A DNA stretch of 64,000 nt from positions 310,001 to 374,000 of the forward strand of contig JAPETS010000012.1 of assembly GCA_026023565.1 (NCBI GenBank), in the 5' to 3' direction. The notes beneath the pieces are model-generated. The model was not told where the DNA came from. It did not search any database and was given only the letters and a program-made list of their open reading frames with translations. Source of the DNA: Cirrosporium novae-zelandiae. Lineage: Eukaryota. Both the position numbers and the translations under genes were made by a program. Shown piece by piece: positions 9,879 through 21,718 of this stretch; the stretch's first letter is position 1; the number at the start of each line of letters is the position of its first letter.

Positions 9879-12800
9879 ATGGCAGCAACTAACCAAGCCG
9901 TAGACAATACTATGGATGGAATTCCAGGTACTGGTACTGCTCCGAACGGAACCAACTCATCAGCATATGCGGTACCTACCTATGACATGCACACCTCCGA
10001 ACCAGCGGGTCAAGGGCAAAATAGTTCGCGCAATTACAGCAAATCCTCAAAAAGATTTCCCCGAATATCAAGGCCAGTGGAGCTGCTGAGAAGCGCATAT
10101 GATGTCGTGGTTATTGGGTCTGGGTATGGTGGAGGTGTGGCTGCCTCCCGCATGAGTAGAGGAAGACAATCAGTTTGTGTTTTGGAAAGGGGCAAAGAAA
10201 GATGGCGTAAGTATACTGCAATATTCAAATATCCCTAGGAATTGGACATATACTTATATAAGAATAACTCATAGCGGGTGAATATCCTAGCAATCTAATA
10301 GAGGCCATGCCCCAACTTCATGTTTCCGGGAATGTTTCAATAACTGGCCAAAGGAGTGTCCCGCTCGACGAGGGAGATCCCACTGGCTTATACCATCTCG
10401 TTGTTGGTGCTGGGCAAAATGCGTTTGTTGGAAATGGTCAGCGGTTATCAGTATTTTCATATCTAAATAGTCGCTAACAATTTATAAGGACTCGGAGGAA
10501 CAAGTCTTCTCAACGCAAATGTATTTTTGGAAGCCGATCAAAAGACTATGGACTTGGAGTACTGGCCAAAGGATATCACTGCTCAAGAACTCAAGCAATG
10601 TGAGTGGGATCGCCGCTGAGAGCTTACATTTGTATATACTAACAAATGTGATCTTTTAGATTACCATCGCGCCAGAAAGGTCCTTCAACCAGAACCCTAT
10701 CCCAAGGAATATCCAGCCTTGCCCAAGTTGGAGGTTTTAGAAAAACAGGCAAAAGCGTTAGGACTCGGGGATAGGTTTTATCGAGTACCTCAGACAACTC
10801 GGTTCGTCGATGGGCCAAATAGTACCGGGGTGGAAATGCAGTCAAGTACCTTGACTGGTATGGATAGTACAGGGGTCAATGACGGATCCAAGTCAAGCAC
10901 TTTGGTTAACTATCTTAGCGATGCATGGAATTGGGGGGCAGAAATGTATGACTCCTTCAGGACCAATCAACGGCTATTCGTCTTCATTGGTTCATTGCAA
11001 ATACTTTTACAGTCTTCCTTGATCGAACCCGCTGACAAGTTAATTTAGGTTCTGCGAATGCGAAGTCCGTTATATGAAACAACATCCTACCAAAGAAGGA
11101 TATCTTGTGTTCTTTGCATGGCACGGTAGCAAGCGTGGAGCATTCAAGCAGAATATTTATGAAGACCTGATGTGGGTCCATGCTAAAATATTTGTCTTCC
11201 TAGGTGCCGGAACCTTGGGTACTGGGGAGATCTTGTTGCGAAGCAAGCAGCTTGGCCTCAGCCTCAGCCAATCAATTGGAACTGGCATGAGTGGAAATGG
11301 TGACATATTAGCATTCGGGTAAGCTGTTTCCTTGGATCACTTCTGAGTATCAGACTCATGGATTTAGATATAATACGGACGAAAACGTGAATGGGATGGG
11401 GAAAGCATTTCCAGACCCAGGGCGGCCAATTGGGCCTACTATTACAGGAGTCATTGATTGCCGCAATCAAGTCAATCCCCTCGATGGATTCGTCATTGAG
11501 GAAGGCGCTGTCCCTGAATCCCTTGTTCCGTTTTTACAGGGGATGCTAGAATTTACCCAAGGAAAGGTCTATCAGAAGGATTCCAACCTTCTTGAAAAAG
11601 CTCGACACATGCTCAGACGTCAAAAGAGTTTCCTTCTCGGACCATACACTCCACACGGAAGTGTCGAACATACTCAAGTCTACTTGATAATGAGCCATGA
11701 CAGTAATCAAGCAACCCTAACACTTGAAAAAGATAGGCCTGTGTTGAGATTCCTGGGTGTAGGCCGCAGTGAGCATGTCAAGTATCTCAATGATATTCTT
11801 GCACAAGCTACAGGGTCTGTGGGAGGCACACAGATCAACAGTCCGTTCTTTGCCTTTTTCAACGAGCAAGAGGTTCGTGACAATCGTGTGTTTTCAGTGT
11901 GTCGCGGCTTACTTTGATAGATTACTGTGCATCCAATCGGTGGTGCGATTATGGCTAGCGATGGGACGCCCGAGACTGGGTCCACTACTCAAATTGGCGA
12001 ACTACTAACTGGCCAAGGAAATGAGTTTCATGAGGGCCTTGTTGTCGTTGATGGCAGTGTGATTCCAACTGCTCTGGGGGTAAACCCGTTTGCTACAATA
12101 ACCGCGTTGGCTGAAAGATCCGTGGAGAAGGTTGCAGAAAAGAAGGGTATAAAGATTGACTATACAACTAAGAATGGTTCACTAGAACTCCAAACCCTCA
12201 CCTAATGTTCATCCAGCTAAGAGATTATCTAGGTGTTCTGGACCTTTTTGGTCAGCCCGCATTCCCGGTTGATGAAGAGGGAGATCTCCTAAAACCAGAG
12301 ATGATTATTAGAGAGGCCCAGGCAACAAGTAGTCCTGGGATTGAGTTCACTGAAGTGATGTCAGGTTTCATTCATCAGGGAGATAATATTGATGACTTCA
12401 ATATTGCGGAGAAGATGGGTCGAGGCTCATGCGAGGCTGCCCGTTTCTTCCTCAGCGTTCGTTCTTGGGATATTGATACTCGTAAGTTATCAGGCCGGTG
12501 ACATGATATTTATCCCGGATCTGAAACCTTCATATTACTTGGACTAATAAATTACAGTACTTTCTCGAGACGATCATCCTGCCATGTTGACAGGAACCTT
12601 CACGTGTGGAGCCCTCCCAGGAAGCCCTTTTATGGTTCTTCGCGGAAGCTTCCAATTATTCAACGAAGACCCACGAACACCAAATACTCGTAACTTGACT
12701 TATGACTTTGATATGGTAGGAACCGATGGAAGCAAAATGCATTTCAATGGCTATAAGGTAGTCAATTCTTCAGTGGCATTCTCGCCATTAGCAACTTGGA

Positions 12801-14246
12801 AGGCTACGTCCACACTTTATGTAACCCTCACAGCGCCGGAAAATGTTACAGTCGGCCGTGGTATACTGCACATAAAGCCACGCAATTTCGGCTCCGAGTT
12901 GGTTACGTTTACCCCAGTTGGGCAGAGTCTTTTCTCCAAAGCAAGAACAACAACCCAGTTCTTAACGTTCTTCACGAAGCAAGTTGCAAACATGTTCTTG
13001 GCACCCTTCAGTTTCCAACAATGGCCAAGCGAAAACTTTGTAGGATACTATGCTAACAAGCAGCCCCCGACAAGGACCATTAAGCTCAAGGCTTCTGACG
13101 GTGTTATCACCACAATGCAGATGTGGGATCCTCTCCCAGGTACAATGGAAGCAGCACAACCTGTCCATATTCTCTTCGTTCCTGGTGCGGCCGTTGACCA
13201 CCAGATCTTCGCACTACCCACGATCGAGTGCAATGCGATCGAGTATTTCCAGAAAGCGGGGTACCATATGTCTTGTGTCACACACCGTGTAGGGAAGACA
13301 CCAGTCGCCCAGAAGAACTATACCACGTTTGATGCTAGACTTGACATCAAAGCCGCGTTAGTGGAAATCCGAAAGGTTCAAAAGTCACACGACAAGATCT
13401 ACGTCATCGCTCATTGTGCCGGATCACTTGCTTTATCGATGGGTCTTCTGGATGGAACCATCCCAGGTGAATGGATTAGGGGTATCACAGCCTCTAATGT
13501 CTTCATGAATCCAAAGTTTGCCTTTATCAACCACATCAAAGCTTCGCTACCATTGCCATTGCCTAAAATCTATAGGCTCTTTATAGGGTCCTGGTTTTCA
13601 TGCATATCTAGCCGTGATGATGCATTCGTTCAGCAACTCCTCGACCAGGCCCTTCGCTTCTACCCCGTCGGCAGCAAAAAAGAAATCTGCAATTCCATAG
13701 TCTGTCACCGTAGCGAATTAGTCTTTGGAAGGTATGTTGTCCCCTCTTCCCTCTTCTCATTCCCAATACTAAGCCTCCACTCACCTCAGGCTCTGGAGTC
13801 ATGCCTCCCTCAATTCAGCCACCCACACTAATCTAGACAATTTCCTCGGCGGTACCTCCATGACCTCCCTCTCGCACCTCATGGCAATGGGGAACCTCAA
13901 CGCCGTCGCCAAGGACAACGGTGAAAGCCTTGTTACCAACCGCAACATCGCACGCCTAGCCGGAATTCCCATCTTCCTATTCTCTGGCTCTGAAAATGCT
14001 GTCTTCACTCCCGAGAGCACCGACATAAGCTACACGATGCTCAGAGACCAGCTAGGTAGCAAGGATTATGAGCGCGTCGAGTTCCAAGGCCGTGGGCATC
14101 TGGATTCCTGGATGGGATCCACAAGCAACAAGGATGTTTATCCAAGAGTTAAGGAGCATATTGAGAAGGTCATGCTCAATGCGGTTACGAAGAAAAAGGT
14201 GACGAAAAAGAAGGACCAAGGAGTAGCAGCCGTTCAGCAGGTATAA
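9879..14246 (+). CDS. Cholesterol oxidase-like GMC flavoprotein fused to a C-terminal alpha/beta-hydrolase domain, multi-exon
   Basis: YDVVVIGSGYGGGVAASR...LERG FAD motif; GGTSLLNANV; FLGAGTLG; HPIGG and DGSVIPTALGVNPFATITALAER (GMC C-terminal). The downstream hydrolase has AHCAGS and GHLD. Several GT-AG introns. Confidence 0.88.
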
Positions 14247-15445
14247 ACATTGGGATTTCTTTTTGAAAGTCGCTGATGTCCCTAAATTGTTCAAATTCCT
14301 TATTTTCAGTTTCTTTTTTCTTTCTTTTTAAAAAACGTATTATATCGTAGTTAATTGCTAAATAATGGTTTACAAGGGAAAAGTTCATAATATTACAAGT
14401 TTCTCATTCTACTCAGCAAAGAAAGATATAATACAGGAGATAACAGCTCCCTGCTACACAAATATTATTCTTTTTCAAGAGACGAAGTTCAACTTTCGCT
14501 CTAGCATAGTCTTAATGAAGCAGGGGAAAAGAATACATAGACTAGTATTGCCACAGTCTAGATAGATAGAGCAAGATAGAGCGGATTTTCTGAATTGACC
14601 CTGGACAAGTTTGGCATGAGCATAGCCTGAGCATAACATCAATAAGCATAATTTAGCTTGGTTAAGTTATGTAATTTATGCCTACGTCAAATTGTGCAAA
14701 ACTTAACCACCGGGGCATAACCCTAGGCTTGGTCTGGTGCCTAAAGCACTCGAATAAATATTTACAGTCATCTTTTGCCCTCGTTGATACTTGATGGAAA
14801 GAAGAGCATGACGTTTCTAGAGACTACCAGTTCATACTTGGAAGTTCAAGTCAAATAATAATGCATAACTGATTCCCTCCAACCAGGCTTATGATATCCT
14901 TGGGCCTCTTTTTCTTGAACCTCCTCTCCTACTTAGGTAGTCAAAACCACCTGCAAGAGATTGGAAGTCAAGAGAATGAATCAGAATATAGGCTGATACC
15001 GGCAACCCTCATCATGTGGCAAACTTACAGGGGAATCTCAAAAGTAATGTTCTACCGCCATAATTTGCTCAAACAAACACCTCAAGTTACTTCAACATCA
15101 GAGCAAGAATTTCCAACCCAGTTCATATAAAGCCTCAATGGACACTCAGCTGATTCATGTTGACAGCACTATCTTGGCTTTAACTCCTGTATTCCTATCT
15201 CTTAACCTTACATCTGTTATCTTCTCTCATTTCTTTGTCCAATCGGTATCTACACTGCTGGCTCCACTCACCGCTAGAAACTATAGCATCGCACAACTGT
15301 CGGGGGGTCCACACAGCAAGATAGGGTTCATCTTCAGACGTTGACACATACTCAGCAGACTCTAGCGTCTACCTGGATATTAAACCTAATTATCCTCACA
15401 ATAAAAGCCCTATAATGATCAAGAGACCTGAGGAGTCTGCCGTTC

Positions 15446-16930
15446 ATGATGTACACACAGCTCGAGGATGGTCTGAGATCTAAGTATCAATTTGACGAAG
15501 AAAAAGAAACGGCAGAAATTAACATTTCGACGATAAATACTTGTCTAAGCGAATCTGAGAATAACCCCCCATGTCCGACAATCGACCCAACAAACAACAC
15601 CAACACGACTGCTCTAAACGTCCTTAGCCTCGTTCGCGATGGCAGCACCATCCCCGACGAAGACCTCCGCTCCTTCATCCAAGGCATTGCATCGGGCACA
15701 GTCCCCGACTATCAAGCGGCTGCATTCCTAATGGCCGTGTACAACAAAGGCCTAAGTGACTCCTCCACCGCAACCCTAACACTCGCGATGCGTGATTCCG
15801 GCCAAGTCATCAACCTCTCCTCCATCCCAGGCATCAAAATAGACAAGCATTCCACGGGCGGCGTGGGGGACAAAATCTCCCTGGCCCTTGCCCCCTGGGT
15901 CGCCGCCTGCGGCATACCGGTCCCCATGATCAGCGGCCGCAGTCTCGGTCACACGGGTGGCACGCTCGACAAGTTAAGCTCTATCCCCGGCTTTCACGTC
16001 GACCTCTCCCTCCCCGAATTCTACTCGCAGATGAACAAAATCGGTGTAGCCATCATAGGGCAAACCACGGATCTAGCCCCCGCCGATAAAAAGCTTTACG
16101 CCCTCCGAGACGTCACCGCAACAATCGAATCCATCCCTCTCATCACCGCCTCTATCCTCTCCAAAAAACTAGCCGAGGGCATCGACTCTCTAGTTCTCGA
16201 CGTCAAAGTTGGCCGCGGGGCCTTCATGAAGGACCTCCCGCACGCACGCCAGCTAGCCTGGAGCCTCATCCGCGTGGGCTCCGCCGCCGGCATACGCGTC
16301 CGCGCCCTCCTGACCAACATGGACGCGCCCCTAGGAACCACAATCGGAAATGCCCTCGAGGTGCACGAGGCTATCGACATCCTGCACGGCCGCGGACCCC
16401 ATGACACAACCGAACTCACCCTCGCTCTAGCATCTGAAATGCTCGTCCTCGGCGGCGTGGCCCCCTCTCTCGAAGAAGCTCGAAAAAAACTCCTCGCCAT
16501 CCGCGATAGCGGCGCCGCCGCCTCAAAATTCGCAGCCCTAGTTGCAGCGCAAGGTGGAAATCCCGCTGTAGTCACCACCCCAGAGCTCATCTTACCCAAA
16601 TCCCGCTTTCGAACCCCTATCTACAGCGACGTCGTAGGCACAGTCACCGCCATCGACGCGCTGGACATTGCAGCCGTCGCTGCGCGTCTCGGCGCCGGTC
16701 ACATGCGCACAGACGACATCATCGATCCGGCCGTGGGAGTCACACTCCGCAGGACCATTAATACGACTGTGAAACAGAATAGTGAGTTAGCGGTTTTACA
16801 TCATAATGCCCCTTTGCCGGCAGATGCTATCTCGGTTGTTCGGAAGGCGTTTGTGATTAATAATAATGATAATGATAACGCGGCTGAAAGGGTGGAAGTG
16901 AAATCTTTGGTTTTGGAGACGTTGGGGTAG
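15446..16930 (+). CDS. Thymidine / pyrimidine-nucleoside phosphorylase (DeoA/Pdp family), intronless
   Basis: DKHSTGGVGDK, PMISGRSLGHTGGTLDKL, APADKKLYALRDVTAT, ITASILSKKLAEG, LVLDVKVGRGAFMK, GNALEV, LGAG...ID.AVG. All family motifs are present in one uninterrupted ORF. Confidence 0.95.
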   Translation: MMYTQLEDGLRSKYQFDEEKETAEINISTINTCLSESENNPPCPTIDPTNNTNTTALNVLSLVRDGSTIPDEDLRSFIQGIASGTVPDYQAAAFLMAVYNKGLSDSSTATLTLAMRDSGQVINLSSIPGIKIDKHSTGGVGDKISLALAPWVAACGIPVPMISGRSLGHTGGTLDKLSSIPGFHVDLSLPEFYSQMNKIGVAIIGQTTDLAPADKKLYALRDVTATIESIPLITASILSKKLAEGIDSLVLDVKVGRGAFMKDLPHARQLAWSLIRVGSAAGIRVRALLTNMDAPLGTTIGNALEVHEAIDILHGRGPHDTTELTLALASEMLVLGGVAPSLEEARKKLLAIRDSGAAASKFAALVAAQGGNPAVVTTPELILPKSRFRTPIYSDVVGTVTAIDALDIAAVAARLGAGHMRTDDIIDPAVGVTLRRTINTTVKQNSELAVLHHNAPLPADAISVVRKAFVINNNDNDNAAERVEVKSLVLETLG

Positions 16931-17552
16931 TTTTGGCTGGGGGTGCGATACGATAGGTAGATAGAGAGATGGATAGATAGATAGACAGGGGGCTAGATGG
17001 TATTGGACTATTAGGCTAATGGTGCATTCAGCATTCAGCATTCAGCACACAACTAGGCAACAAGCAACACGTAAATTCCGAATTCAGATTAGAAAATCTT
17101 TTGGTATACTATAAAAGTATATATCTACCTACATTGTATTTATGTTTGTAAATAGACTATATACTATCAGGGGTGGGGGGGGGGGGTGGATGGATAGGAT
17201 AGATAAGATGGATAAAATGATTATTATTTTCATAATTTAATTGGAATTGTGTACAAGTTATTGTCAAGGAATCAGCTATGCCTAAGCTCCCAGACCAAAA
17301 GAACGTGGATACCCGCTAGCCAACGAGTGATCTAGAATAGCTTATATAACCTGGGCTGCGCCCTCACAGTTATGATGTGCATGCGCGGTTGGTAAAAAGC
17401 ATAGAATAAAACCCCCCAAAGTTACATTGTAGCCAGTTATCCTATATTTCTAGCTACGCGTTATATATATAACGTCACGATCTCGAGGTTCCATCCAATT
17501 TATCCTCACATAAGTAACACCACACCACGTCACAAAAAATCATCAATCCAAT

Positions 17553-20500
17553 TTAATCCAACCACCTTGTATCCAACTTCTCCAAAAACGCAAAATCAAC
17601 ATTAACAAAACTCCTCCACCAATCCACCTCCAGCCTCCACGGCGCCGTCTGGATCGCAAAGGTCATCCCCACCGCCATCTTAAACAGCTCCTCATCATCC
17701 CCGCCCATAACCAAGAAAATATCCTTTCGGATCTTGACGTTGCGCCCGAGGATGTGCTTGTAAGGCTGGATGCGTGTTTGCGCTTGCCGGTGTATACTCC
17801 ACTCCGAGTACGGCATATCCTTGGGGGCAAACTTCCACCCCCAGGCTCGGTATTTAGCGTCGTAGAATGCGGTGGCATCTCGGTTGTCGAGACTAAGCAT
17901 CAGGGGGTAGAAGTATGCGCTAGACCAGAGACGGAGAGCAAAGCGGGCTTTGGGATTTTTTTTGGAGAATCTTTGTGCGGATGTGAGGAGAGATTCTTTT
18001 GAGGGGGGGACGTCGAGGGCAGAAATGCCTCTGATGTCGTCCAGCATTGGGCGTAAGTCTAAGAAGAGGTCGAATGGACGGTCGCCTTCTTTGTGGGCGA
18101 TGGCTTGACCGGGGATCATATCGGAATAGGAGTTAGCGATTACGCTTGCATTGTAGAGTTTGGCGATTATAGGTCAAATTGCAATGTCCCACTCGGCTGG
18201 GTAATTCTTTTGTAATGACCCCTCCTTTCTGATTGAATCCCACTCTTCCCAGAAAGATTTTGGTCTTGTTTTGTTACTAAGGTCAGATCTCCTGTCCGGA
18301 AGTTGCTTTGCACGCTCTTCTTGTTTCACGAGCAAGCTATCCTTGAACTTTTCCCCTCGCTCATTCTCAAAGAACTTGCTGGGGTAAAACAAAGATATCG
18401 AATCCATTGCTCGCTTCATATCTCTCCCCCCTCGCTTGATTTCAGCTGACACCATGTGGAACCACTCGTACATATCAAAAATTCTGAAAACGCCGTTAAA
18501 CTCGATATTGAAGTAGCCCATCTCCGTTATCATTTTCTTTGCTTCTCGATACTTTGCATCGGCATCTGGCTCTAAGCCAGACTCATGCCAGCACTTTTTG
18601 AATACTATGTTGCATTAATATTGGTCCCCGCTTTGGAATCTAGAGGCATACCTCTGGCTTTCTCTCTATCCATGAAGACATTAAAAACCGCATCAACATC
18701 TTCTTCCTCTTCTTCATCTTAGCCTGAAAACCCAAACTTCTTAGTTAGCTCCATTGATTTCCTCGTCTCCTCACTTATGGGTTCAAGGTCTTCATCCCCA
18801 GACTCATCAGTATAGTCTTCATAGTCTTCACCATCCTCTTCGTCAAACTCTTCGTCGCTAAAGTCGCCGTAATCTGAACTCCCCTCGTCAGCTTCGTCGG
18901 AGCTGTACTCTATGCCCTGCACGAATCGGTTTATGGATGGGCCATGACTTTCAAAGTCCAACAAGGCATTGGAATTCTTTTTAAAAAGCGCAGACTTATC
19001 CCCCAATTGCTCTTCTGGAAATAGGACAGCATCCTCAAGGGCATCTGCCTCGGCGTAGAACCAGTACTTTGGCGATTCCAATATTTCGCCCTTGTCATTC
19101 CACACTCGTGTAGTAGTGTCCTCGCTATGGAATACATCATAGATACTCCGGGCCTCTTCCCCCGGTTTGATCTCACGAACTCGGTGGTTGCTAGATTCTC
19201 TCGTTAAAGTCTTCAAAATTGGTGCCGCAACGTTGTAGAATTCTTTCATATCAACAAAACGATTGGCTTTAATAAGGGCCTATTGAGATTAGTTTATGAA
19301 TCTCGGTTCGATCCTCTGTGACACTCACTTCTGAGATATTTGAGTACAGATCAGAAAACGGTGATCCTGGATCTTTGTCCCATATATAAACGTCGTAGTG
19401 ACTATTGAATCCTAAATGCCATCTTCTGAATTTTTCCATTTGCTCAAAAAATTCCGGACCGACCTTTGAACGAACATTCCATTCATTTTTAGCTGCCCTC
19501 CCAGCCCCAGACTTCTCACAAACAAGCCAAAACTCCTCTTCTCGAGGTAAAACTATAATACGGCCTATCTTACCGTCACGGACCAAAAGTATCAAGTCGA
19601 ATGTTTACATCCAGAAGTACTAAAGGAATCTTCGGCTCACTAGGTCATTACGCTTAATGTAAGCACATACAAAATTTCTACTCTCAATTACCGCATGCAT
19701 TCGACGTCCTGGCCCACGCCTTCCAGTTTGATGGCGGGACGTTACCTTCTCAGCTTCATCGAATTGGAAATATGGAATGAAGCCCTAGCAAACCATATTA
19801 GTCTATATCCAACACCATCAAAGGTTTCATACCAATTCAAGGAGTTGCGTTTTATATCTATCACCGGCCCATTCCAACCAATTTGCTGCAGGAAAGAATT
19901 GATAAATCGCAAGAATTTTCAATTCGAAGAACTCGTCCCAGTTCCGGCAGAGCTGAACAGCATCGAAAAGGTTACAATCTTTAGCTATTATGCAAAACTG
20001 AAGCCAACCACCTCGGCTGATAGACTTTTCGCTAGGATAGTTGTAGATGGATTTCCCGCAGATTTTGACACGCATTTTCTTAACTCGAAATTCACCTTCG
20101 TCATCAACCTCTCCAAAATCAATCATTGCGTCTTGAGAAAACATTTCTTGCATTTTACGACGGTTCTGCGTTTGGCTCTCTCTTTTAGAAGTCCACTTTT
20201 CAGGAAGGGCGCCTTTACGATTGCGTGACTCCCAGAAATACGCAGGCTTCTTGCCTAACCTCTTATCTGTCTCGTTGTCATCATCTTCCTCCCTTTCATC
20301 ATCTTCTTCACCTTCTTCATCACCTCTAGTGAGATCTGCACAGGCATCACGAACTTCCTGTAGCTCAGGCTTTTCCATTCTAAGGCATAAGTCTCTCAAG
20401 TCCGCATTAGTGACATCTTTATCATTCAAGAATTCCTCGACGCTGTTGGCTCGGAGAGCGATTGGGAGTAGCGTCACATGAGAAAGCAACAATCGACAAA

Positions 20501-21718
20501 ATAACAGTTTTTTAATCTCAGCAATATCCAAGAGCAGATTATTTATCTCATCATCAGGGAGTGGCGCCGCTCTATAGTACAATTCAATGGGGTGTTCGAT
20601 TGTTCCTCTGACCATAAGCCCTTCACCATGAGCGTATTTAACACCCTCGCGAAGGCGTTTTCTTATCTGCTCCGGTGTCTCAATGGTTTCTTTACTGGCA
20701 ACTTCCTAACTTGTCCCATTTTTCTTGGCCTTCTTCTTTGCATTCTTAGAGGCCTTTGAGCTTTTAGCAGGTTCATTACCTTTGCCACCTGAGCCGTTGA
20801 GAGGAGTGTTCTCTTTCATGATCTTCTCCTTCTCCTCCTCGACTCCATTATCCTTCTCAGATCCTTCCTTTTCCAACCTCTCTTCAGGCATCATCAAGAA
20901 AAGCTTGATGAGCTCAACATAATTGGCACGTTCGCCCTCTTCAACGTCTTCAATCGGATCCCATTCTGCTTCCTCCTCTTCCTGTGAAAGTCGTGGCAGG
21001 CGTGACATTCGCTTCTTATAAACTTCATCTAAGTACTTCTCATCACGCTTTAAGGCTTCTTTCGTCTTTGATTGAGCCATACGGGCCTGCGTTTCCTTCA
21101 TGTAACGCTTAAATAGAGCTGCCTCTCGTTTAACCTTTTTCTTTTCATTTTCCCGATGGGTCTCTTCATCATCTTGGCACTGCCGTACCCACTCAAACCA
21201 TTTCTGCTTCTTATATAGCATATCCGCTGTTCTTCGTACCAATCGTTCTATCGCACGTAGCACGATAAATCTCTGGTTCTCCAGATTGTCCAGATAATGA
21301 TGGTGACCATAATCATTGTTGGAAGAAAAGAAGTGAGCATGATGGAGCTTCCGAGCACGAATAACTCTACCGAGAAGGACATATTTAAGATTGAGGTAGG
21401 ATTGGATTTCGTTCAACTCGGGTTCGGACTCGAGATCTTCGAAAGTTTGGTTTGCAAGGGCAACGGAGCTCTCAGCCAAGTACTTGGGAGGCGACTTGTC
21501 TAAGGCATCTAAACGAGCATTACGGTTCTTGTAACCTCTATACAGACCTATGAAAGAATCAGAATCAGAATCTTAAATAAGCAATTATGAATGGAGATTT
21601 GTTACAGACCTTGGCATTGCCTCGAGTGGAAGGCACAGAAAAGGCCATTTACGGATGTGGCATCTGCAGGGCAACTATATTGATCCGAAAGGTTTAATGC
21701 CGTACATTGAGGCGCTAT
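17553..21718 (-). pseudogene. Pseudogenised large fungal protein of unknown function (N-terminal Cys/His motif, acidic tracts)
   Basis: Exons joined by canonical introns give one long reading frame broken by in-frame stops at 20706-20708 (TAG), 19620-19622 (TAG), 19605-19607 (TAA), 18719-18721 (TAA) and 18174-18176 (TGA). Exon 1 has no in-frame ATG, but AAC-ATA-GCG lies at 21716-21718. Confidence 0.8.

Follow-up and report, generated by a model that had tools for sequence, protein, structure and literature searches.

Described enzymes of the thymidine and pyrimidine-nucleoside phosphorylase family include Escherichia coli DeoA (NP_418799.1; PDB 1AZY, 4EAD), the pyrimidine-nucleoside phosphorylases (PyNP) of Geobacillus stearothermophilus and Bacillus subtilis (1BRW, 5OLN, 5EP8), and human TYMP (PDB 2J0F, 1UOU). 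A hydroxylase-based thymidine route is known from filamentous fungi, and fungi are in general not known to possess thymidine kinase. In the extract of PMC11051394, a list of bacteria-derived horizontal gene transfer (HGT) candidates in Botryosphaeria dothidea includes BDLA_00012548, a thymidine phosphorylase with PYNP_C; a bacteria-derived thymidine phosphorylase is thus already listed once in an ascomycete, and in the literature searched, that list was the only report of such an enzyme from a fungus. Here we analyze a 64,000-nucleotide stretch of the Cirrosporium novae-zelandiae genome (GCA_026023565.1, contig JAPETS010000012.1, positions 310,001 to 374,000, forward strand), hereafter the window, which carries an intron-free thymidine phosphorylase gene at 15446..16930 on the forward strand. 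This single gene was most probably acquired from a relative of uncultured Myxococcota by an ancestor of this fungus, a member of the Xylobotryomycetes, and domesticated there.

The phosphorylase gene and its bacterial relatives

The gene comprises 494 codons and a stop in one uninterrupted open reading frame (ORF) without an internal stop (15446..16930, +). All three Pfam domains of the family scored above the gathering threshold, with E-values from 1e-14 to 5e-47: Glycos_trans_3N (PF02885, residues 60-119), Glycos_transf_3 (PF00591, 131-358) and PYNP_C (PF07831, 400-471). Among NCBIfam models, the thymidine phosphorylase model NF004490 (523 bits, threshold 269) and TIGR02644 (514.4 bits, threshold 409.05) were both exceeded, placing the protein in the NP-II family. 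The narrower DeoA-type equivalog TIGR02643 (460.4 versus 570.7 bits) and the Bacillus-type PyNP equivalog NF004747 (470.1 versus 559 bits) both fell below their cut-offs. Residues 57-494 run collinear with the closest relative, the metagenome protein P0003, apart from one gap of one residue and one of seven; the gene is therefore intron-free. A sequence-only reading of this DNA had described an intact, intronless DeoA/Pdp-family protein with its phosphate- and base-binding motifs in place. The single frame, the three domains and the collinearity bear this out, and every motif that it quoted is found in the translation: DKHSTGG at 133-139, LRDVTAT at 220-226, SILSKK at 236-241 and VPDYQAAAFLMAVY at 86-99.

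In the protein search, the 8000 candidates sharing most words with the fungal protein were scored and the best 120 listed, 119 of them non-self. The sole match above 66% identity among these was the window's own protein. P0003, a 433-residue protein, was the best non-self match at 66% identity and 603 bits, and the remaining 118 listed matches were 410-454 residues long and 55-64% identical. The organism labels among the 120 were those of five Myxococcota and two Deltaproteobacteria proteins from metagenome-assembled genomes (MAGs), with no others; no fungal name occurred among these matches, nor in the Protein Atlas clusters for the enzyme, which were bacterial only. Two of the ten clusters looked up for relatives had Myxococcota-named members, and among longer or fused forms found as 50%-identity representatives, four of ten carried bacterial names (Alicyclobacillus, Thermaerobacter, Seinonella and Oleispirillum). 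A further ten proteins looked up in this way had no organism label. Against solved structures, the fungal protein scored highest with Geobacillus PyNP (414 bits), followed by E. coli thymidine phosphorylase (340) and the human enzyme (311).

Scanning genome contigs with the fungal protein returned five distant loci, from Bacillota, Thorsellia and Ignavibacteriales, with identities of 44-50%, and no Myxococcota genome was among the loci from that scan. Scanning metagenome contigs with P0003 returned 80 loci, none of them on the contig of P0003 itself; the best was 64% identical to P0003, and over part of the length identity to the fungal protein was 55-64%. Two of the contigs that carry such relatives, L030 and L006, have a GC content of 0.67 and encode two-component and ABC genes together with a MopE-motif protein. 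On both (L030 2737-9009, L006 428-6495), the phosphorylase gene is flanked by genes for a large repeat protein with the MopE motif (PF11617) and for a histidine kinase. An OmpR-type regulator comes next in L030, and on neither contig does the phosphorylase gene belong to a deo operon.

Phylogenetic analysis placed the fungal protein among these bacterial-type sequences. A quick tree of 79 rows paired it with P0003 (Shimodaira-Hasegawa-like approximate likelihood-ratio support, SH-aLRT, of 99) in a clade of 45 rows (98), to which eight of the nine rows labeled Myxococcota or Deltaproteobacteria belong. A more careful tree of 44 rows drew on 28 of the 119 top matches, 11 of 150 representatives, three of five named loci and E. 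coli DeoA (NC_000913.3), with near-duplicates and long-branched rows omitted. Here the fungal protein was sister to P0003 (100/99) inside a 29-row clade (100/99) that includes Myxococcota and Deltaproteobacteria MAG proteins; the bootstrap behind these values was still short of full convergence (correlation 0.974). The terminal branch of the fungal gene measured 0.88 in this tree, versus 0.16 for P0003. Together with the 66% identity to P0003, the bacterial-only labels and the embedding of the gene in a 763-kb fungal contig, this placement supports the horizontal acquisition from bacteria proposed from the letters of the sequence.

The gene could instead represent a thymidine phosphorylase of ancient eukaryotic or fungal ancestry, lost in most fungi and kept by vertical inheritance in an isolated lineage, and several points lend weight to this account and count against a bacterial transfer. 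The trees hold no animal or other fungal homologue, and the comparison with human thymidine phosphorylase is one of PDB bit scores; because no eukaryotic homologue is in the trees, the description of the protein as not opisthokont-like draws on those scores. Forcing the 28 bacterial members of the clade together without the fungal row made the tree 36.7 log-likelihood units worse, with p = 0.062 in the approximately unbiased (AU) test, for a group that was picked after the tree was seen; this borderline value does not formally reject a placement of the fungal protein outside the 28-row bacterial clade. The bacterial nature of P0003 was judged by its length, composition and short branch. Because 8000 word-sharing candidates were scored and 120 listed, more distant fungal homologues may have been missed.

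Sampling of the host lineage bears on the same question. Cirrosporium novae-zelandiae belongs to the class Xylobotryomycetes, characterized in the extract of PMC6712537 as an isolated lineage. For the lunapark protein encoded in the window, the fungus's own entry matched at 100% identity and the next fungal match was just 56-58% identical, which indicates that this branch is thinly sampled and gives vertical inheritance some room. Given this isolation, finding no closer orthologue among fungi speaks only weakly for a gene restricted to this host. Against vertical inheritance stand the sister relationship (100/99) to a short-branched protein of bacterial length, within a clade that contains Myxococcota MAG proteins; the 603 bits to P0003 versus 311 to human thymidine phosphorylase; the intron-free structure of the gene amid an intron-rich neighborhood; and the count of fungal names among the 120 listed matches, which was zero. 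Hence, we regard vertical inheritance as very improbable, and prefer acquisition from a bacterium related to Myxococcota.

A replaced start, host-like third positions and fungal surroundings

The window comes from a fungal host. One of its genes, for a Zn2Cys6/Fungal_trans_2 regulator, occupies two frames that meet at a GTAAGT...TACTAAG...TAG intron, an anoctamin gene likewise extends over two frames, and GH6, ferric reductase and lunapark genes also lie in the window. The phosphorylase and lunapark genes share one contig of 763,115 bp, and fungal genes occur on both sides of the phosphorylase. With the split regulator and anoctamin genes nearby on that contig, the gene does sit among intron-containing fungal genes, as had been read from the sequence.

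Close inspection of the ORF revealed an N-terminus that has no counterpart in the relatives. Their alignments to the fungal protein begin at residues 55-58, so that residues 1-54 (15446..15607, +), acidic and rich in Asn and Thr, form an extension absent from all of them; an unrelated N-terminal extension of about 50 residues had been noted before, and the alignments agree. The homologous core spans residues 55-494 (15608..16927, +). At codon 54 (15605-15607), where Met1 of P0003 would fall, the gene has ACG, and after the start at 15446 no in-frame ATG, GTG or TTG occurs ahead of the conserved domain, the next Met being M96 inside the conserved N-terminal domain. With no usable start codon at the bacterial position, translation must begin at the ATG at 15446 or at 15449. 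The extension has a GC content of 0.41 versus 0.58 in the core, and GARP and FYMINK residue fractions of 0.13 and 0.33. It was probably recruited from local fungal sequence and is probably disordered. A second departure from the relatives is a low-complexity Asn/Asp-rich run, NNNDNDN, at residues 472-478 (16859..16879, +), which falls within the seven-residue insertion relative to P0003.

Base composition separates the gene from its flanks more clearly than from its neighbors. GC content is 0.56-0.63 within the ORF versus 0.35-0.43 in the flanks, and the core has a GC of 0.58 with a third-codon-position GC (GC3) of 0.66. The other ORFs of the window range from 0.37 to 0.64 in GC3, just below the phosphorylase. 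Because its GC3 barely exceeds this range, the contrast between ORF and flanks is due for the most part to first codon positions and to the flanks being non-coding. The earlier statement that the core is richer in C and G than its flanks therefore holds as far as the flanks go, but at third positions the gene is set only slightly apart from other ORFs of the window.

At third codon positions, the C and G frequencies of the phosphorylase (0.50 and 0.16) are close to those of a native GH6 exon (0.49 and 0.15), versus 0.52 and 0.39 in eight pooled bacterial relatives. Of the ten top-scoring relatives with DNA, seven had a GC3 of 0.87-0.95; others stood at 0.60 (L016), 0.79 (L051), 0.74 (L025) and 0.29 (L062). 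The encoded protein has also shifted toward residues with AT-rich codons, with GARP and FYMINK fractions of 0.305 and 0.202 versus 0.379 and 0.122 in P0003.

Relative synonymous codon usage (RSCU) spoke against a domesticated gene, since that of the phosphorylase correlated at 0.69 with bacterial relatives and at -0.08 with pooled host ORFs. A native-looking ORF of the beta-lactamase family behaves alike (0.53 with bacterial relatives and -0.14 with pooled host ORFs), so RSCU was set aside as a confounded indicator of foreignness; third-position base composition told more. The ORF in question (664-1962, -) is intronless, encodes 432 residues with a PF00144 match, and has a GC of 0.57 and a GC3 of 0.63, a little below the phosphorylase; native genes with a high GC3 are thus present in the window. 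We do not claim it as a second transfer, all of its NCBIfam scores being far under the cut-offs.

The source record of the contig is a MAG, which raises the question of whether a bacterial fragment was misjoined into a fungal contig as an assembly chimera or contaminant. The nature of the record, the intron-free gene and its RSCU correlation of 0.69 with bacterial relatives would all fit such an artifact, and to that extent tell against a transfer. The sequence around and within the gene argues otherwise. Exactly one gene makes up the bacterial-like stretch, and on either side of it lie AT-rich, non-coding flanks of 1.2 kb and 0.6 kb with a GC of 0.35-0.43, whereas the contigs of the relatives have a GC of 0.67 throughout and carry candidate neighbor genes within about 20-55 bases of the phosphorylase gene. 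The bacterial start position reads ACG, and the frame extends through it into 53 AT-rich codons. GC3 is 0.66, versus at least 0.87 in seven of those ten top-scoring relatives, and third-position C and G stand as in the native GH6 exon. The seven-residue insert carries the low-complexity NNNDNDN run, and amino-acid composition has moved toward residues of AT-rich codons. Among the best 120 of the 8000 candidates, no non-self protein exceeds 66% identity. We therefore give a chimeric assembly very little credence and retain a transfer into the fungal genome as the preferred explanation.

In such a transfer, a gene from a Myxococcota-related bacterium would have entered the nuclear genome of an ancestor of this Xylobotryomycetes fungus. 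Its bacterial start, now ACG, would have been lost and replaced by the ATG at 15446 or 15449, adding about 53 residues, and a small Asn/Asp-rich insert has arisen near the C-terminus. Third codon positions have come to resemble those of a native fungal gene rich in C-ending codons, and the amino-acid make-up has drifted toward residues of AT-rich codons while the catalytic apparatus was retained. In a host that probably lacks thymidine kinase, the enzyme could then convert scavenged deoxynucleosides directly to thymine or uracil and a usable sugar phosphate.

Bacteria-to-fungus moves of single metabolic genes are well documented, and the transfer event itself is for that reason unsurprising. 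What sets the case apart is that it is unusually readable: a replaced start, a recruited N-terminus, host-like third positions and an intact active site, in a barely sampled class. A further lesson is that, in fungal MAGs, ORFs that are intronless and GC-rich call for junction checks before they are labeled HGT.

Active site and predicted function

The active-site residues of the family are present in the fungal protein: D133, K134, H135, S136, T173, Q206, Y218, R221, S236, K240 and K241. More broadly, 68 of 69 near-invariant columns (at least 95% conserved among 269 relatives) are kept, and the relatives themselves keep a median of 68 and a minimum of 61. The lone deviation is R419H, at a position that is Arg in 119/119 top matches, in 142/150 representatives and in E. 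coli (Arg370). In the extract of PMC10143232, Arg370 of the E. coli enzyme appears through docking contacts only, and its role is not settled. A Protein Atlas model of the fungal protein has a predicted template-modeling score (pTM) of 0.83, and its residues 54-494 align to the PyNP cluster model with template-modeling (TM) scores of 0.86 and 0.97.

Whether Lys or Met occupies the position of PyNP Lys108 and E. coli Met111 bears on the acceptance of ribo- versus deoxyribonucleosides. In the fungal protein M161 aligns with Met111, and this residue is Met in 119/119 top matches; S145 aligns with E. coli Ser95 and is Ser in all 119. The Bacillales sequences L001, L003 and L004 have Lys and Thr at these two positions. 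Lys108 of the Bacillus and Geobacillus enzymes is named as phosphate-binding in the extract of PMC13629066. The label "Pdp-style", given to a helix of the protein in the sequence-only reading, found no backing in this comparison: the best NCBIfam model is that of thymidine phosphorylase, and Met161 stands where L001, L003 and L004 have Lys.

From the kept catalytic residues, Met161 and the Protein Atlas model, an active DeoA-like enzyme is expected, one predicted to convert thymidine or deoxyuridine and phosphate reversibly to the free base and deoxyribose-1-phosphate. By the same residues, we infer a DeoA-like preference for deoxynucleosides over a broad pyrimidine-nucleoside specificity.

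The transferred gene might, however, be a neutral or decaying relic that no longer works as an enzyme. Its terminal branch is long (0.88 versus 0.16 in the sister), R419H alters a near-invariant Arg, its sequence includes a low-complexity insert and an extension that is probably disordered, and no partner genes lie nearby. R419H also has to be set against domestication of a working enzyme, as does the outcome of a tblastn search with the E. coli proteins, which found no DeoB, DeoC or DeoD homologue in the 64-kb window; the suggested check for phosphopentomutase and deoxyribose-phosphate aldolase accordingly returned neither in that window. Decay is hard to square with a 494-codon frame that has stayed intact through 34% amino-acid divergence from its nearest relative, with the retention of 68 of 69 near-invariant columns and of every catalytic residue checked, with third-position usage like that of a native gene rich in C-ending codons, and with the model's pTM of 0.83 and TM of 0.86 and 0.97 to the PyNP cluster model over residues 54-494. 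An inactive relic is, in our estimate, unlikely, if somewhat less so than either a chimera or vertical inheritance, and domestication is the reading that we carry forward.

What a domesticated enzyme would do for the fungus can be put forward only tentatively. It might provide a working, fungus-atypical entry for thymidine and deoxyuridine that bypasses the hydroxylase route, used in feeding on DNA or in inactivating nucleoside-analogue antibiotics, with the N-terminal extension and R419H as host-specific adaptations; this would make it the first functional thymidine phosphorylase demonstrated in a fungus. Should this doubtful but specific proposal be true, the DNA could come from dead wood, microbes or partners. 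An active enzyme would add a pyrimidine deoxynucleoside phosphorolysis step that is not known from model fungi, and would be relevant to reconstructions of fungal nucleotide salvage and to the use of nucleoside analogues on fungi.

Neighboring loci and comparison with known systems

Upstream of the phosphorylase lies a multi-exon fungal gene (11312..14246, +), with ORFs in different frames and a branch-point-like TACTAAG and a CAG at the frame change. Its 329 relatives reach 67% identity and lie on contigs as long as 2.4 Mb. Its 426-residue exon has no Pfam match, longer relatives carry GMC_oxred_C (PF05199), and its C-terminal exon resembles the end of an alpha/beta-hydrolase; the gene may encode a fused oxidoreductase-hydrolase. 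Between it and the phosphorylase is the upstream intergenic flank (14247..15445), AT-rich at a GC of 0.35-0.43 and with no ORF of at least 80 residues wholly inside it.

The downstream intergenic flank (16931..17552) is also AT-rich and contains a GATA-type microsatellite and a poly-G run; at 16955-17221, within this 3' flank, copies of the GATA/GATG-type microsatellite stand together with a run of about 13 G. A repeat search around the phosphorylase gene returned short two-copy chance matches only, with no transposon or target-site signature. Beyond the flank are two ORFs of 206 and 119 residues (17553..18533, -) that belong to no recognizable family: neither has an NCBIfam match, and the 206-residue ORF is also without a Pfam match or a usable Protein Atlas match. 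The Protein Atlas model of this longer ORF is poor, with a predicted local distance difference test (pLDDT) score of 0.32, and the ORF is either an orphan gene or no gene.

Farther downstream, two adjacent ORFs of 292 and 288 residues (19827-21572, -) share one frame, interrupted by just one stop codon at 20706-20708, for about 580 codons in total. Neither matches Pfam or NCBIfam, and AT and GC skew are strongly negative across the region, which could be a gene with a stop-containing intron or a broken lineage-specific gene.

Compared with the described systems, the fungal phosphorylase shares family and fold with human TYMP (311 bits over 58-471), which is more distant by bit score than the bacterial relatives. 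The PyNPs of Geobacillus stearothermophilus and Bacillus subtilis are its top solved-structure matches (414 and 379 bits), yet PyNP Lys108 is replaced by Met in the fungal protein, and the Thr that PyNP has at the Ser95 position is Ser. E. coli DeoA is 46% identical over 401 residues, and its D83, K84, H85, S86, S95, M111, S113, T123, Q156, Y168, R171, S186, K190 and K191 are all matched, whereas its Arg370 corresponds to His419. The E. coli gene is part of the deoCABD operon; the fungal gene stands alone.

Botryosphaeria dothidea BDLA_00012548, known here from its entry in the extracted list of PMC11051394 and not by sequence, likewise comes from a filamentous ascomycete, of another fungal class. 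The closest counterparts are the enzymes of Myxococcota and "Deltaproteobacteria" MAGs (the cluster of P0027, P0028 and P0034) together with P0003, which have the same three domains and 55-66% identity over residues 57-494. These Myxococcota-type relatives are 410-454 residues long and lack both the 53-residue extension and the NNNDNDN insert of the fungal protein, and their genes, mostly with a GC3 of 0.87-0.96, lie on GC-rich contigs among bacterial-type neighbors.

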